Positions 1-5,160 of a DNA stretch of 64,000 nt are shown piece by piece. Every line of letters begins with the position of its first letter. The stretch's first letter is position 1. The stretch is taken from assembly GCA_049291975.1 (NCBI GenBank), contig JBATQJ010000152.1:601-64600 (forward strand), read 5' to 3'. Below the pieces are notes generated by a model. It searched no databases. It was not told where the DNA came from and saw nothing but the letters and a program-made list of their open reading frames with translations. The position numbers and the translations under genes were made by a program. This DNA is from Scrofimicrobium sp. Lineage in GTDB: Bacteria; Actinomycetota; Actinomycetes; Actinomycetales; Actinomycetaceae.

Positions 1-189
1 CTAACCTCCAACAGTCGCTGACTGACCGAATTAAGCGGACTGGCTACCGCTCGGACTGAGATCTGCTGCGTTCTCGTCCGGTGTCGCCACCACCTTCTTC
101 AGCACCCTCCTGCTCACTGCAACAATTAGGCTGCCGCGCGACTGCGCTGCCGCAAATTGAAGCAACACATGAGGCCCTACTCCGTCGGA

Positions 190-534
190 CTACTCTTGCG
201 GTTCCGCGTCCCAGAGCTCCTCGTACTCTGCGGCCACCGTGTCCCAGGCCATACGGGCGGCCTCGGACACGGCGGGCAAGTCACCGCTGCTCGCACGGAT
301 CACGAAGTCATGCGAGATAACCCGACGAGCGTGGTCTTGGCGACCTTTGGGGTCCGGGAATCGGAGCACCAATTTATCCCCGACACGTTTGGAGACCTTG
401 CGCTGATCGGCAACTCCAGCGAAGGCAGCTTCGTAGACGGGGAGCGGATCTGAGTAGCCGCCGTCACGTAGAAACCGGAACCCCCACAACTTGCCTCGGG
501 TCGCCCAGATGTATGATCCGGCCTCAAGCGTCAC
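190..534 (-). CDS. 114-aa hypothetical protein, translationally coupled to the upstream GTPase gene
   Basis: The in-frame GTG at 534-532 overlaps the TGA of the GTPase gene (GTGA), with GGAG 6 nt upstream. This is the C-terminal 114 codons of track ORF 190..828 (VTLEAGSYIWATRGKLWGFRF...EELWDAEPQE), which read as protein. The upstream 98 codons of that ORF overlap the GTPase gene and are Arg/Gly-rich junk. Confidence 0.6.
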   Translation of the reverse strand: MTLEAGSYIWATRGKLWGFRFLRDGGYSDPLPVYEAAFAGVADQRKVSKRVGDKLVLRFPDPKGRQDHARRVISHDFVIRASSGDLPAVSEAARMAWDTVAAEYEELWDAEPQE

Positions 535-1712
535 TTGAGGCTCCGCAGGAAAATCTGGTCTTCCTCTCCCTGATCCAGATCCATCTGGAATCGAGTCAGC
601 GTGGCCGTCACGTAGTTCTGCTTTGCGAGCGCTTCCTCGTTTACCTCTCGCAACTTGTCCCCTGCGAGCTGAGCCGCCTGATCCACAACGTCGGGGCTGA
701 TGAGCGCAAGGATCAGGCCGAGTGGACCGGGTTTGGCCTTGCCAAGGAGCGCAGCGGCAAGCAGCTTGGCACCACCGTTGATGATGCTCTCCGTAACCTT
801 CGCGGGGAGCTGCTGAAGCTTGGCCCACTTTGCATGCCGCTCCAACGGCAGAATTGCGGCGATCGGTAGCACGAGATCGAGCCCAACGCGCTTTGATACC
901 TCGATCTTTTCGGGCTCAAACTTCGCCGAAGACAGAAGTAGAAAGTCCTCAGCGACTGACATTGCGGCCGGATCTTGCACGAACCCGGCGAGCACCTTGC
1001 GGAGTTCATTGAGGTCGTCGGCAGCCTTGAGGTCGAGGAGGTCCCTGAACTTGAAGGCATCCATATCCGGGAAGAGGTCAGCCTTGGAGAGAACCATGAT
1101 CCAGATCCGAGGAAACTGGACGAGAGGTGCTCCATCCTCAAGGAGCTCGTCCTTGAGGCTTACAAGGCCGTTTGCGAAGTTACTAAAGAGCGACTTGAGG
1201 TACCGTTCTTCCTCCCCCGCGTGATCCTGCAGCCGCTGGCCGTCAACGAGAAGCAGGGCGATGTCTGAGCCTAGAAGTGAGCGGAACGTGTCGACACGCC
1301 GCAGTGCTTCTTCCTCGCCGCTTACACCCTGCTCAAACCATTCGCCCGGGTAGTCGTGCCACACGAGCCGCAGGGCATCAAACGGAGCCGCCTTGGCAGT
1401 CTTCGGGCGCGGAGGGTCCTTAAGCTTGATTGAGAAGGCATAGGAAGTCGCATCAGCGATTGTGGGGAGCGGAGCAACACCTTCGTCTCGCATGCCGAGG
1501 TAGTTGCGATTGAGTCGAGACCCTTGACCAATATCGTCAGCGACCACGCGGTAAAGACTCTGCTTGAGAAAGAACGCCTCTTGTGCCGCACCATAGAACG
1601 ACGACACGAGCACGGTCTTGCCGCTTCCACTCTCGCCAAACACTGCAATGTGCTGCTCAAGCACGGACTTTTTCTCCTGCATGTTTCTACTATAGAGGTC
1701 AGGGTCAGGCAC
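531..1712 (-). CDS. P-loop GTPase-like protein (TRAFAC-type motif order), family unassigned
   Basis: G1 is GESGSGKT (aa 26-33), G3 is DYPG within LVWHDYPGEW (aa 120-123), and a G4-like motif is LSKAD (aa 208-212). The C-terminal ~130 aa contain a hydrophobic stretch, GAKLLAAALLGKAKPGPLGLILALI. The start is GTG at 1712, or ATG at 1682. Confidence 0.75.
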   Translation of the reverse strand: MPDPDLYSRNMQEKKSVLEQHIAVFGESGSGKTVLVSSFYGAAQEAFFLKQSLYRVVADDIGQGSRLNRNYLGMRDEGVAPLPTIADATSYAFSIKLKDPPRPKTAKAAPFDALRLVWHDYPGEWFEQGVSGEEEALRRVDTFRSLLGSDIALLLVDGQRLQDHAGEEERYLKSLFSNFANGLVSLKDELLEDGAPLVQFPRIWIMVLSKADLFPDMDAFKFRDLLDLKAADDLNELRKVLAGFVQDPAAMSVAEDFLLLSSAKFEPEKIEVSKRVGLDLVLPIAAILPLERHAKWAKLQQLPAKVTESIINGGAKLLAAALLGKAKPGPLGLILALISPDVVDQAAQLAGDKLREVNEEALAKQNYVTATLTRFQMDLDQGEEDQIFLRSLK

Positions 1713-1952
1713 CGCCCCGAGTTAGGAGATGCGATCCGCGTCGCCAACCCGAACAACAAGGCCAGGCCGTGACCTCGTGAATGCCCGCGCGTTTCATGTG
1801 CTCACTCATGTGCTACCGGCGCTGTTAGGTTGTGAATCGCAGTGCAGTTTTCACAGGTAGGCTCCACAGAAATGGTGGAATCATGCGGTAGAACACCGAT
1901 TCACGATTTCGTGTGCAAGGGGGAACGGTTCAGTTCGACTCCGCGCTCCCAC

Positions 1953-2429
1953 TCAGAGCCGCAGGACGAGGGTGCCTTCTGATAGCTCGGCACCAGCAAG
2001 GAAACCCACTCGTTCATACAGCTTGCGGGCCGGGTTGCTTGCCTCAACACTGAGGCTGATTCCGTCGAGTTCACGGACATGGGCCTCGCGAATCGCCTCC
2101 TGCATCAGCGCCAGACCGACACCTTGTCCTCGATGCGGAGCATCCACCCAGATACTGAGTTCTGGGATGCTCTCTTGAACAAACCCATAGCCAGGGTCAG
2201 TTTCAGTGAAGAATCTCAACCAAACAACCCCAACAGGGCAACCTTCTACGCTCTCTGCGACGAATCCGAAGTCCTGTCCCGTCGGCCAGCACTCAAAGTA
2301 ATGGCGAAACTCTTGCCTCTGAAGTTCGTCCGGCGTGAATCGTTCGCCATTCCAGTTCAGATTCGCCAAGGTGGCCCGCATCAGCAAAGATTGATCTTCT
2401 ATCGTTGCTCTGCGCGTCAGTGGACTCAC
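1953..2429 (-). CDS. GNAT family N-acetyltransferase
   Basis: Acetyl-CoA binding core HRGQGVGLALMQEAI and C-terminal NPARKLYERVGF. The N-terminus RRATIEDQ is typical of GNATs. GTG at 2429 with AGGGG upstream, 8 nt after the stop of the preceding gene. Confidence 0.85.
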   Translation of the reverse strand: MSPLTRRATIEDQSLLMRATLANLNWNGERFTPDELQRQEFRHYFECWPTGQDFGFVAESVEGCPVGVVWLRFFTETDPGYGFVQESIPELSIWVDAPHRGQGVGLALMQEAIREAHVRELDGISLSVEASNPARKLYERVGFLAGAELSEGTLVLRL

Positions 2430-2436
2430 GATGCCC

Positions 2437-3138
2437 CTACCCAGCGCGTCCGCGACGGCCTGGCGGGAGCAACCCTCGGCCTCGGGCCTTGGCGATCCAG
2501 CCCTGCGCGGTACTGAGCGCGACGCCGTTGATGTCGGCCATCGTTGCCGAGGGGTTCCCGTCGCCCTGACCCGAGAGCTTGCCGTGCTGCAACGCGACAA
2601 GCTCGTAGAAATCAGGCACCTGCTTCGGGTTGCCGAGCGGCTTCAAGAGGTCTCGGTCGCTCACCTTGCGACCGCTCGGGAGCACGATCTTGTTGCCGGT
2701 AACGGTGGCGACGCGCTTCATGGCGAATAGGCGCTTGTTGATCGCGGCCTCGATCTTCGCAGTCGGCAGTTCGCGCAGCAGGTGGCTGGTGATGGGGTCA
2801 CCCGGTCGCCACGGCAGATAGATCACCCCAGTGATGCGCACTTCCTCGGGAGTTGCGTAGAGCTGCCGCTGCAAACGGATCATCACCCGCGTCGCCGTGC
2901 CCTCATGCTCGATGTAGCGCCAGCGACCGTCCGCGGTCTCGTTCTGCTCAGAATCGGCGCTCTCGCCCGTCGTTTGGTCGTCATAGCCGAGCACGCGGTC
3001 GATCTCGTCGCTCGCATCGTCAGGGCGCTCGCCGGGAAAGCGAGAAGCGAGGTGCCAGCCCGCAGGCAGGTCAGCCTGCGTGAGCAGCCCGTCTGCGCTC
3101 TGATCCCCTGCGCGGGGCGTGGGTAGTGCCATGCGCAC
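2437..3138 (-). CDS. Island hypothetical protein with a C-terminal HTH-like segment
   Basis: A 233-aa ORF divergent from xis. The C-terminus NPSATMADINGVALSTAQGWIAKARGRGLL looks like a helix-turn-helix. No other family recognised. Confidence 0.65.
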   Translation of the reverse strand: MRMALPTPRAGDQSADGLLTQADLPAGWHLASRFPGERPDDASDEIDRVLGYDDQTTGESADSEQNETADGRWRYIEHEGTATRVMIRLQRQLYATPEEVRITGVIYLPWRPGDPITSHLLRELPTAKIEAAINKRLFAMKRVATVTGNKIVLPSGRKVSDRDLLKPLGNPKQVPDFYELVALQHGKLSGQGDGNPSATMADINGVALSTAQGWIAKARGRGLLPPGRRGRAG

Positions 3139-3265
3139 GAGTCTATCGGAAACACGCGCTTATCTCATGTAGTTGCGGTTACACGTTGTTTATGTTCTAA
3201 TATCAGGTACTCGCAAGAACACTAGTTATTGGTGGCGTTCACGCGCACCCGATGAGAGGAAGGGC

Positions 3266-3463
3266 ATGACCGAGGCGACGACCCAGACGGACTACCTCAC
3301 GCGCTCCGAGGCCGCCGCCCGGTGCCGGGTGCCATTGCCGACGTTCGATAAGCTGCGCCGCGAGGGTCTGATCCCCGAACCGGATGCCGAGGTGGGCAAG
3401 CACAAGCTCTGGCGCGCTGACACCATCGACGAGTTCCTCGAAGTCGGCGGAACGAGACGCTGA
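3266..3463 (+). CDS. xis: Excisionase / MerR-like HTH DNA-binding protein
   Basis: A 65-aa protein, YLTRSEAAARCRVPLPTFDKLRREGLIP...KLWRADTIDEFL. GAGAGGAAGGG Shine-Dalgarno upstream. Its stop overlaps the int start (TGATG). Confidence 0.8.
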   Translation: MTEATTQTDYLTRSEAAARCRVPLPTFDKLRREGLIPEPDAEVGKHKLWRADTIDEFLEVGGTRR

Positions 3464-4755
3464 TGGCCGGCCGACCGTCGAACACCTCCCCGTGGCGTAT
3501 CGACCCGAAGACGGGTCGACCGCTGCCTGAGAGGATACGGTGGCGGGCAGATCGCAACCGCTATCAGATTCGAGTGACGGTCACCGATCTAGCGGGGAAC
3601 AAGCAGCATCGCTCGCGCATGTTCCTCACGCTCGCCGAGGCGAAGCGGGAGCTGGCGAAAGAGGTTGCTGGCCGTAACCCGAACGCGGGCATGACGCTCA
3701 CCCAGTGGCACGAGCGCTACTGGCCTGCCGTCGTGGCGTCGGTGCGGGTCGGAACGGCGCGCGGGTACGACGTGTCGTGGCGCAAGCGGGTGCAGCCGAC
3801 CCTCGGCGATAAGAAGCTCGAAGACATCACCTCGCCGCTCATCGAGTCGGCGATGGTGTCGTGGGCGGGTTCACCTTCGATCAAGGTCGATTCGCTCGCG
3901 GTGCTCAGCCGCTTGCTCGACGGCGCACGCCGGGCGAGGATCATCGACTACAACCCCGCACGCGAGGTGAAGCGCCCGAGCCAGGACACCTCCGTGTCGC
4001 CGACCTCTCGGGCGCTCACCGTGCGACAGATCACGAAGATGCTCGAACTCATCGAGCCGGGCGTGTACCGTCGCTACGCGGCGGCGCTCGTATTCACGGG
4101 GATGCGGGCGGGCGAGGCGACCGCGATGCGGGTGCGCGATGCCGATTTGCGGCAGGGCATCCTCCGCGTCAGCCGAAGCTTCTCACCCGGCAAACACGGC
4201 GAACTGATCGAGCAGAGCCCGAAGAGCCACAAGGAACGAGAGGTGCCGATCACGAAGCAGCTCGGCCCATACGTTCTCGAAGCGGCGAAGGGTAAGGAGC
4301 CCGACGACCTGCTGTGGGCCGGGCCGAACGGGGGCAGGCTCACCGCCCGGAACTTCCGCCGCGCGGTCGAGTGGGAGAAGATCAAGACCGCACTGCGCCG
4401 CCCCGACCTGCGCGTGCACGACCTCCGGCACACCTTCGCCACGATCCTCTTCGACGCGGGAGCATCCGCACCCGACGTTCAGGCAGTGCTCCGACACTCC
4501 AGCCTGCAAGTCACCGAACGCTACTCACGAGCCCGCGAGGGCGTCGCGCGGCGCGGTGGCGCGGTGCTCGACGGACTCTTCGAGTCCGACAAGCCGAAGC
4601 CCAAGAAGAACGGCAAGACTCCCGATGGGAAGAAACCGCGCCGCAACCATGCGATCCCGAACCCCAACGACCCGTTCGCCAATCCGTTCGGCAGCAACTC
4701 CGGCCGCCGCAATGGCCCAAATTTGGCCCAAGGCCATCAAGGGGTCGGTCTCTAG
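3463..4755 (+). CDS. int: Tyrosine-type site-specific integrase
   Basis: Catalytic-domain motifs GMRAGEATAMRVRD, HDLRHTFAT and LRHSSLQVTERYSR. Low-complexity Lys/Pro/Asn C-terminal tail. Confidence 0.95.
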   Translation: MAGRPSNTSPWRIDPKTGRPLPERIRWRADRNRYQIRVTVTDLAGNKQHRSRMFLTLAEAKRELAKEVAGRNPNAGMTLTQWHERYWPAVVASVRVGTARGYDVSWRKRVQPTLGDKKLEDITSPLIESAMVSWAGSPSIKVDSLAVLSRLLDGARRARIIDYNPAREVKRPSQDTSVSPTSRALTVRQITKMLELIEPGVYRRYAAALVFTGMRAGEATAMRVRDADLRQGILRVSRSFSPGKHGELIEQSPKSHKEREVPITKQLGPYVLEAAKGKEPDDLLWAGPNGGRLTARNFRRAVEWEKIKTALRRPDLRVHDLRHTFATILFDAGASAPDVQAVLRHSSLQVTERYSRAREGVARRGGAVLDGLFESDKPKPKKNGKTPDGKKPRRNHAIPNPNDPFANPFGSNSGRRNGPNLAQGHQGVGL

Positions 4756-4766
4756 ACCTCAAAATG

Positions 4767-4826
4767 GATCCTGCGACTACGCGCAGGATGACGGCGGCGA
4801 GATCCTGCGACTGCGCGCAGGATGAC
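4767..4826. repeat. Two tandem 26-bp repeats (4767-4792 and 4801-4826), each with an internal 8-bp palindrome
   Basis: GATCCTGCGACTACGCGCAGGATGAC versus GATCCTGCGACTGCGCGCAGGATGAC: 1 mismatch, 34-bp period. Each has the form ATCCTGCG-N6-CGCAGGAT. They lie between the int stop and the tRNA. Confidence 0.85.
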
Positions 4827-4844
4827 AGTAAGGCCACCTGACCA

Positions 4845-4889
4845 GGGAAAATAAAAGAGCCCCCACGAGTAGAAGCCTCGTGAGGGCTC
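4845..4889 (-). terminator. Rho-independent terminator downstream of the tRNA-Arg/tRNA-Phe pair
   Basis: 13-bp stem GAGCCCCCACGAG / CTCGTGAGGGCTC (1 mismatch) with a 7-nt loop. On the minus strand it is followed by TTTTATTTTCCC. Confidence 0.7.
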
Positions 4890-4914
4890 AGCAGCGGTGT
4901 AATACTCCGCTACG

Positions 4915-4987
4915 TGGCTCCGACCGGCATCGATCCGGTGACCTTTCGATTTTCAGTCCAACGCTCCACCAACTGAGCTACAGTGCC
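4915..4987 (-). tRNA. tRNA-Phe (anticodon GAA) with atypical 3' half
   Basis: 73-nt cloverleaf: GGCACTG TA GCTC AGTTGGTG GAGC G TTGGA CTGAAAA TCGAA AGGTC ACCGG ATCGATG CCGGT CGGAGCC A. CCA is not encoded. There is an A4:A69 mismatch, a G29:G41 mismatch, and a T-loop beginning with A instead of T. Confidence 0.75.
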
Positions 4988-5022
4988 GAAAGGTCGCCAT
5001 GACAGGACAACCCCCACAAGAG

Positions 5023-5095
5023 TGCCCCAAACAGGATTCGAACCTGCGACCTTTCGCTCCGGAGGCGAACGCTCTATCCACTGAGCTATTGGGGC
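5023..5095 (-). tRNA. tRNA-Arg (anticodon CCG)
   Basis: Canonical 73-nt cloverleaf: GCCCCAA TA GCTC AGTGGATA GAGC G TTCGC CTCCGGA GCGAA AGGTC GCAGG TTCGAAT CCTGT TTGGGGC A. Confidence 0.9.
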
Positions 5096-5160
5096 TCTCT
5101 CCACGAAGCCGTCGAATGACAGCCACATAGAAGCAGAAAAACTCTACCAGGCTTCCTGGG

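Follow-up and report, generated by a model that had tools for sequence, protein, structure and literature searches.

The DO-GTPases (Pfam PF19975 and PF19993) were delineated computationally as a new clade of TRAFAC GTPases with a Walker B glutamate, and were predicted to act as the switch of “GTPase-centric” conflict systems in which they are coupled to a three-domain GAP1 protein (Kaur, Burroughs, Iyer & Aravind 2020, eLife; PMC7159879). In the same study, the DO-GTPase–GAP1 pair was stated to have no close relatives elsewhere (PMC7159879). Here, we describe such a relative: a compact operon encoding a GTPase of 383 amino acids (aa) and a partner protein of 114 aa, borne by a 64,000-nucleotide stretch of DNA (hereinafter the window; positions 601 to 64,600 of contig JBATQJ010000152.1, assembly GCA_049291975.1) from a metagenome-assembled genome of the actinobacterium Scrofimicrobium sp. 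We place at roughly 0.55 the probability that these two genes make up a conflict module that is self-contained and horizontally mobile, and most likely deployed in defense against phages or other mobile elements. This reading is supported by the independent prediction of the PF19993 family as a conflict-system switch, and the defense function itself is one that we infer from genomic context. We consider the pair a promising, compact and testable defense candidate, though not one that is surprising in principle.

The GTPase and its partner gene

Relatives of the pair were sought by scanning one genome per species across 185,579 species, which uncovered it in 321 of them, and the best 79 loci were examined. 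The partner gene is directly downstream of the GTPase gene in 77 of these 79 loci, the two exceptions being one with a disrupted GTPase gene (L006) and one that is truncated or fused (L081). In 74 of the 79, the two genes are joined by a four-nucleotide start/stop overlap of the form [A/G/T]TGA, and 62 of 76 show a Shine–Dalgarno-like motif ahead of the start codon. With 74 of 79 independent loci sharing this overlap, the pairing and the overlap are well beyond chance. The Scrofimicrobium operon conforms to this pattern: the overlapping GTGA and the GGAG six nucleotides upstream of it, from which the original prediction had proposed translational coupling, read on the minus strand as it described them, and its suggestion that the pairing be followed up in homologs is answered by the near-constant adjacency seen here. 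As that prediction had further noted, the partner gene is hidden in the list of open reading frames (ORFs) inside a longer, 212-aa frame (Table 1); the deposited annotation carries an identical 114-aa product. Pairwise distances among the GTPases also correlate with those among the partners (r = 0.63), with none of 2000 Mantel permutations reaching as high a value. When the neighbors in the 79 loci were clustered, no third conserved gene was found: apart from the pair itself, families reach 12 loci at most, and the recurrent ones are generic enzymes. Taken together, these features point to the GTPase and the partner being a conserved and translationally coupled pair.

The association extends to more distant versions. 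A Curtobacterium plasmid bears a pair whose GTPase is 48% identical and whose partner is lacking only in the gene table, and pairs at about 42% identity occur in low-GC metagenome contigs, where the partner bears a membrane tail. In the metagenome loci, the GTPase is present wherever there is room upstream and the match to the partner is full-length. Two apparent fusions of the GTPase and the partner (P0175, 514 aa, and a single ORF at L050:329-1849) were considered as possible Rosetta-stone evidence and set aside, as both display an Arg/Gly-rich stretch in place of the C-terminal helices that appears to be a frameshift read-through. In Kocuria cellulosilytica, the whole pair is present as two diverged copies, 4.4 kb apart and in opposite orientation, at L031:3910-5549 on the minus strand and L031:9980-11490 on the plus strand; their GTPases are 73% and their partners 66% identical.

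The GTPase had been described as a 393-aa protein. The frame does remain open to a GTG that would give this length, but the likely start is the ATG that yields 383 aa (MQEKK...), since the deposited annotation and the closest homologs begin there and the 10 residues upstream of it are not conserved. We accordingly number residues on the 383-aa form, to which 10 must be added for the longer one. The protein displays a TRAFAC-type G domain (approximately residues 1–260) followed by a helical C-terminal region (approximately 265–383). The G1, G3 and G4 motifs are as the original prediction had read them, in canonical order, and a G5 motif, SSAK at residues 251–254, can now be added; T79 is a candidate for the switch-I (G2) threonine. 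All of G1 to G5 are present in the TRAFAC order, with G4 showing a Ser where Asn/Thr would be expected. In an alignment of 21 homologs (63–100% identity), conservation is complete or reaches at least 90% at nearly all the motif positions; G4 has either A or S as its middle residue, and residue 114, which follows DYPG, is E in most of the homologs, with a few showing D or Q. The sequences of G4 and G5 speak for specificity toward guanine nucleotides.

The original prediction could not place this GTPase in the housekeeping or dynamin-like families. That part stands, as it is not a housekeeping GTPase and shows no match to the dynamin-family models of Pfam, or to DUF463; but it does pass the threshold of the DO-GTPase2 model (PF19993), with 30.6 bits against a cut-off of 27 over model positions 91–173. 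Divergent members of the pair score 40.3 and 46.9 bits against the same model over positions 3–192, and since these 40–47-bit matches cover almost the whole model, membership in the DO-GTPase2 family is sound. The divergent members also match DO-GTPase1 at 19–21 bits. We recovered 1977 homologs of the GTPase, most of which have a precomputed PF19993 match. Searches of NCBIfam and PHROGs returned P-loop noise only, those of PADLOC-DB v2.0.0 only matches at the level of the P-loop (mad8, E 0.002; HerA, E 0.02), and no chain in the PDB was matched by the profile of the GTPase family. A hydrophobic hairpin, proposed at residues 303–327 as part of a membrane-directed effector region, does not hold up: the best 19-residue Kyte–Doolittle mean of 1.47–1.54 falls below the usual 1.6, and in the 21-homolog alignment the stretch falls where conservation of the protein is lowest and indels are frequent.

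The match to DO-GTPase2, along with the weak matches of the divergent members to DO-GTPase1, would also be expected if the operon were what is left of a canonical multi-gene DO-GTPase–GAP1 system, be it a fragment or a minimal remnant. However, no gene for a GAP1, GASH or FNIII-repeat protein is conserved in the vicinity, the GTPase has no N-terminal zinc ribbon, and the partner matches no Pfam model, those for the GAP1 domains included, when 30 of its members are scanned with E-values up to 5. Moreover, the pair is intact and strongly constrained in hundreds of genomes and hence is not decaying. We regard this explanation as largely refuted and accord it a very slight likelihood.

The partner domain and its phage homologs

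The partner family is marked by the conserved motifs WATRG..WGFRF, DPLP.Y and RFPDPxGRxDxxxRxIxHDF. An AlphaFold2 model built from a 30-sequence alignment, with a predicted local distance difference test (pLDDT) score of 92.1 and a predicted template-modeling (pTM) score of 0.86, depicts a single alpha/beta domain with the order beta-beta-alpha-beta-beta-beta-alpha. Apart from noise, the Pfam scan of the 30 members mentioned above recovered no real family and, more specifically, no match to Longin or Robl_LC7; likewise, PADLOC-DB v2.0.0 had no match to the partner and a PDB sequence search with its family profile found nothing. A Foldseek comparison of the model with the PDB gave no significant match, and the top of the list is occupied almost wholly by longin/roadblock domains of GTPase regulators and SNAREs, with E-values of 0.04–0.7 and template-modeling (TM) scores of 0.33–0.47. 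These include SEA/GATOR1, FLCN-FNIP2, BLOC-3, TRAPPII, Ykt6, VAMP7, Sec22b and C7orf59-HBXIP, and are followed by GAF, PAS and profilin folds. The modeled domain appears to resemble the longin/roadblock domains weakly, which we treat as a lead and not as membership.

A profile search of 1.84 billion representative sequences recovered 272 clusters of the partner domain, which fall into three architectures: the domain on its own, at about 110 aa; the domain with a membrane helix added at its C terminus; and a phage-type form in which an N-terminal HYGVKGMKWGVR motif (Pfam DUF7211) is followed by a membrane helix and then the domain. A homolog search seeded with P0207 retrieved no sequence but P0207, which lies on a contig of 1.1 kb. 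Common to all three architectures are the arginine of the TRG motif, the DP motif, a loop arginine and aspartate, a second arginine, the I.H motif and a tryptophan. The retention of this core in all three suggests that its residues form one binding or catalytic surface.

The phage-type form is exemplified by the lytic Arthrobacter phages Nightmare and Tokki, in both of which gene 8, lodged between the genes for the large terminase and the portal protein, encodes a homolog of the partner domain. The two are closely comparable: Foldseek aligns the partner and the gene 8 domain with an E-value of 1.7e-8, a TM score of 0.82 and 38% identity, and profile–profile comparison with hhalign gives a probability of 99.9%. 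The partner domain also matches phrog_38171. No GTPase is encoded by Nightmare or Tokki, and Arthrobacter species commonly carry the GTPase–partner pair. DUF7211 is a modular N-terminal tag of 25 aa in many families of actinophage proteins. At least 12 PHROG families contain it, including one with the annotation virion structural protein, and hundreds of viral contigs (L096–L175 among the loci examined) have it joined to other C-terminal domains. In two further relatives (P0287 and P0298), an N-terminal 2H phosphoesterase domain is combined with DUF7211, the membrane helix and the partner domain; the 2H-phosphoesterase fold is used by some anti-defense enzymes. It is possible that the phage copies are inhibitors of the host GTPase, which would make them candidate anti-defense proteins.

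Mobility, gene-neighborhoods and proposed function

The cassette is rare and patchy in its distribution. As the GTPase is absent from the 2.9 million viral contigs of IMG/VR, we conclude that the cassette spreads on islands, integrative and conjugative elements (ICEs) and plasmids rather than on phages. Carriage by phages was considered and rejected: beyond the lack of any IMG/VR example, the sole match in a GenBank phage record is an unverified actinobacterial “bacteriophage” scaffold, which bears the pair. The view of the pair as mobile cargo is borne out by its presence in tRNA islands, at the edges of ICEs, on plasmids and in defense islands.

The neighborhoods vary even among close relatives and are enriched in genes for restriction, other defense functions and mobility. 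The Leifsonia locus features McrBC, a giant DEAD/MZB helicase and UvrD; that of Streptomyces anulatus, GmrSD; that of Arthrobacter, a Type ISP restriction enzyme, transposases, an nSTAND protein and a TrwC relaxase; that of Mycobacteroides abscessus, Fic, AAA_15/21, Mrr, resolvase and TraG-like genes; and that of Microbacterium, two MmeI/Eco57I-type enzymes. One locus lies at the edge of an ICE-like gene set. The Curtobacterium plasmid pair sits in a Tn7-like region with a Type ISP enzyme and a cyclic-oligonucleotide-based antiphage signaling system (CBASS), and in metagenome contigs the pair is accompanied by type III-B CRISPR genes and by a TrfA replicon; RepSA joins TrfA, TrwC and the transposases among the adjacent mobility genes. 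To survey these associations, the nearest large ORF on each side was taken from longest-ORF calls in 77 loci, and the resulting 150 ORFs were compared with Pfam. The commonest families were AAA_19 (9), GmrSD_N/C (4), AAA_30 (4), ResIII (4) and N6_Mtase (3), followed by UvrD, Mrr_cat, Eco57I, RAMA and NERD (2 each). The equivalent PADLOC census is dominated by redundant models that match the same four GmrSD-like proteins. In the metagenome contig L233, a type III-B CRISPR-Cas set (RAMP/Cmr1-like, Cas10/Cmr2 and Cmr3; L233:4550-9106) starts 0.9 kb downstream of a divergent pair whose genes do not overlap and are separated by 255 nucleotides. All told, what the original prediction had named as telling against its proposal was not found: the GTPase falls in no known housekeeping or characterized defense family, the partner is nearly always adjacent, the loci are not mainly in core-genome contexts, and the neighbors are mostly restriction, helicase/nuclease, other defense and mobility genes.

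The occurrence of the pair on plasmids, at ICE edges and on integrase islands raises the question of whether it is instead a toxin–antitoxin-like addiction module, in which the free GTPase would be toxic, the partner would neutralize it and the consequence would be the stabilization of islands, ICEs and plasmids rather than the arrest of phages. Two tightly coupled genes of unequal size are in keeping with this, and the phage-borne copies of the partner recall known antitoxin mimics. Yet the small gene is second and depends on translation of the GTPase, an order unusual among classical type II systems; the two proteins show strong conservation (63–90% identity across orders) and neither has a known toxin fold; and the association with restriction genes is more typical of defense cassettes, albeit addiction and defense are not mutually exclusive. 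We judge this alternative unlikely, although it is the one that we take most seriously. The relaxases, TraG-like ATPases and ICE gene sets that adjoin several loci could, in turn, signal a role in transfer of the mobile element or in exclusion, e.g., entry exclusion; however, conjugation genes are lacking within 10 kb of most loci and the pair is also found beside CRISPR and restriction genes on non-conjugative DNA, making such a role quite improbable.

In two low-GC metagenome contigs, a YcjX-like (DUF463) gene directly follows the pair (L177:2298-4987 and L176:1582-2913), and in L177 the next gene codes for a DUF697 membrane protein. Such an arrangement, the metabolic genes around some loci and the membrane anchor on many relatives of the partner would suit a cellular regulatory or stress GTPase with its cofactor, perhaps linked to the envelope or membrane like YcjX/YcjF, which has spread horizontally and has no part in conflict. 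This is difficult to square with a pair that is rare and patchy (321 of 185,579 species), has differing neighborhoods in close relatives and an enrichment of restriction and mobility genes nearby, occurs as two diverged copies in one genome and shows no Pfam match to DUF463. We therefore rate a purely cellular role as improbable, if less so than one in transfer or exclusion.

For the conflict module that we favor, the following course of action could be envisaged. The DO-clade TRAFAC GTPase would be the switch, and the partner, made in fixed proportion to it through translational coupling, would bind it and control its nucleotide cycle in a GAP (GTPase-activating protein)-like or inhibitor-like manner, possibly via its invariant arginines. 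A cue from infection would disturb the complex, upon which the GTPase would change state, probably by oligomerizing through its helical C-terminal region, and the switched form would stop the growth of the phage or kill the cell. The membrane-anchored copies of the partner in phages might then be counter-measures that hold the GTPase off. For each of these steps, namely the binding of the two proteins, the direction in which the partner regulates, the trigger of the switch and the effector step, our estimate is considerably lower than the figure given above for the module as a whole.

Several observations weigh against this account. Some loci sit among metabolic genes, e.g., those for permeases and dehydrogenases. 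Neither the GTPase nor the partner contains a recognizable effector domain of the nuclease, NADase or pore type, and the longin/roadblock resemblance of the partner is weak, with no sequence support in Pfam. The structure model of the GTPase (pLDDT 45.9, from 21 sequences of at least 63% identity) is unusable and says nothing about the C-terminal region or the complex. The correlated distances of the two proteins would likewise result from simple co-inheritance. The phage homologs are membrane-anchored and share DUF7211 with a virion-structural family, so their role may differ. Finally, the window ends 189 nucleotides past the small gene, with the remainder of this particular island lying outside it.

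What can be seen of that island agrees with the original description of a tRNA-associated element with int/xis. The integrase and xis-like genes adjoin a tRNA-Phe gene, 3.2 kb from the pair, and the other neighbors in the window are genes for a GNAT acetyltransferase and a 233-aa protein, which has no match in Pfam, NCBIfam, PADLOC or PHROGs and is probably a further island gene (Table 1). No attachment (att) repeat of the tRNA-Phe end was found within positions 1–5100 of the window; therefore, the island extends past the window start. It is probably integrated at the 3′ end of tRNA-Phe and runs leftwards off the window. The tRNA-Phe(GAA) gene is accompanied by one for tRNA-Arg(CCG), the two occupying 4914–5095 on the minus strand with 35 nucleotides between them. 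Between the integrase stop codon and tRNA-Phe (4767–4826) are two tandem 26-nucleotide copies of the internally palindromic GATCCTGCGACTACGCGCAGGATGAC, which show 34-nucleotide spacing and 96% identity, and may be arm sites of the integrase/Xis or terminators.

Table 1. Features of the gene pair, of its surroundings and of the related phage genes. Positions are those of the window unless prefixed by a phage locus; motif residues are numbered on the 383-aa GTPase.
Feature	Position	Strand	Details
GTPase gene	531..1682	minus	383 aa from ATG at 1682; ORF open to GTG at 1712 (531..1712, 393 aa)
G1/Walker A, GESGSGKT	1614..1637	minus	Residues 16-23; invariant or nearly invariant columns
G3/Walker B, DYPG	1344..1355	minus	Residues 110-113, then Glu114; P112 and G113 invariant
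G4, SKAD (NKxD variant)	1077..1088	minus	Residues 199-202; K200 and D202 invariant
G5, SSAK	921..932	minus	Residues 251-254; S251, S252 and K254 invariant
Small partner gene	190..534	minus	114 aa; nested within 212-aa ORF 190..828
Coupling junction	531..544	minus	GGAG 544-541, 6-nt spacer, GTG 534-532 overlapping TGA 533-531 (GTGA)
233-aa ORF	2437-3138	minus	Between GNAT gene and xis-like gene
xis-like HTH_17 gene	3173-3463	plus	Pfam match
Tyrosine integrase gene	3463-4755	plus	Pfam match
tRNA-Phe(GAA)	4914-4987	minus	Probable integration target
Nightmare gene 8	L093:5301-5912		~203 aa: DUF7211 motif HYGVKGMKWGVR, membrane helix, partner domain
Tokki gene 8	L094:5270-5884		~203 aa: DUF7211 motif HYGVKGMKWGVR, membrane helix, partner domain

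Relationship to known systems

The two-gene architecture, which the original prediction did not recognize as any known system, is likewise not recognized by PADLOC or NCBIfam, and no account of it emerged from literature searches based on PF19993, its sequence motifs and keywords. Six systems recently reported from the actinobacterium Streptomyces involve different proteins (bioRxiv 10.1101/2025.01.08.631966). Our search of the literature also found no DO-clade GTPase that had been tested experimentally, and the canonical versions consist of many genes and are hard to reconstitute. The present form is minimal at 1.5 kb and two genes, is strongly conserved and occurs in tractable hosts, namely Arthrobacter, Microbacterium, Streptomyces and Mycobacteroides; with candidate natural inhibitors at hand in isolated, culturable phages, the role of a DO-clade GTPase becomes directly testable.

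Among the systems with which the pair may be compared, YcjX/YcjF (DUF463/DUF697) shares the layout of an NTPase and a partner in two genes, and YcjX-like genes stand beside the pair in the two contigs noted above. Escherichia coli YcjX also presumably carries DYPGE-like and [ST]KAD (TKAD) motifs similar to those of the GTPase described here. However, there is no significant sequence match between the two, their partners are unrelated, and YcjX/YcjF is a widespread chromosomal pair and not an island cassette. The Eleos system (LeoA/LeoBC, dynamin-like), other defense systems that contain a GTPase, and the eukaryotic GBP/atlastin immune GTPases are similar in combining a large GTPase, a helical C-terminal extension and a defense setting. 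Unlike them, the present GTPase matches neither PADLOC, dynamin-type systems included, nor the dynamin-family models of Pfam; GBP1 and the atlastins do top the Foldseek list, but with TM scores of at most 0.25 and for the unreliable model of pLDDT 45.9, a weak lead on which we do not rely.

A further parallel is offered by MglA/MglB and the eukaryotic longin/roadblock regulators of small GTPases (GATOR1 Nprl2/3, FLCN-FNIP and Ragulator), in which, too, a GTPase is matched with a small alpha/beta sandwich partner, and whose longin-type strand order the modeled partner seems to share. Nprl2 and FLCN supply an arginine finger; by analogy, the invariant arginines of the partner could do the same. 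Against this, the fold match of the partner (TM 0.33–0.47, E of at least 0.04) is below the level of a same fold and there is no sequence similarity; moreover, these systems use Ras-like small GTPases, whereas the GTPase here has 383 aa and a helical tail. Should the partner turn out to be longin-like and regulatory, this would have implications for how the eukaryotic GTPase–regulator pairs arose. One may go further and conceive of an immune GTPase with the partner as a prokaryotic counterpart of the longin/roadblock GAPs, wherein infection leads to release, oligomerization and abortive infection, and of actinophages that captured the regulator and tethered it to the membrane or the virion by DUF7211 and the membrane helix, sometimes with a fused 2H domain, as an anti-defense device. 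If true, this would reveal a new defense system along with a natural inhibitor of it, and would link the pair in evolution to the eukaryotic GTPase–regulator pairs; we hold so specific a scenario to be unlikely.

The closest comparison is thus with the DO-GTPase–GAP1 systems themselves. In both there is a TRAFAC GTPase with the Walker B glutamate, which here passes the PF19993 threshold, and a partner gene downstream of it; both are mobile and patchy and are predicted to be conflict switches, with their function having been assigned computationally. The present pair differs in having no GAP1 (with its N, M and C domains), GASH, FNIII component, second GTPase paralog, zinc ribbon or variable effector genes, and no similarity to GAP1 can be detected in its partner, which consists of one 114-aa domain. 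Since GAP1, GASH/FNIII, the effector array and the zinc ribbon are all absent, the pair is outside the definition of the DO-GTPase–GAP1 systems: the GTPase clade had been described computationally, and the two-gene form without GAP1 is new.

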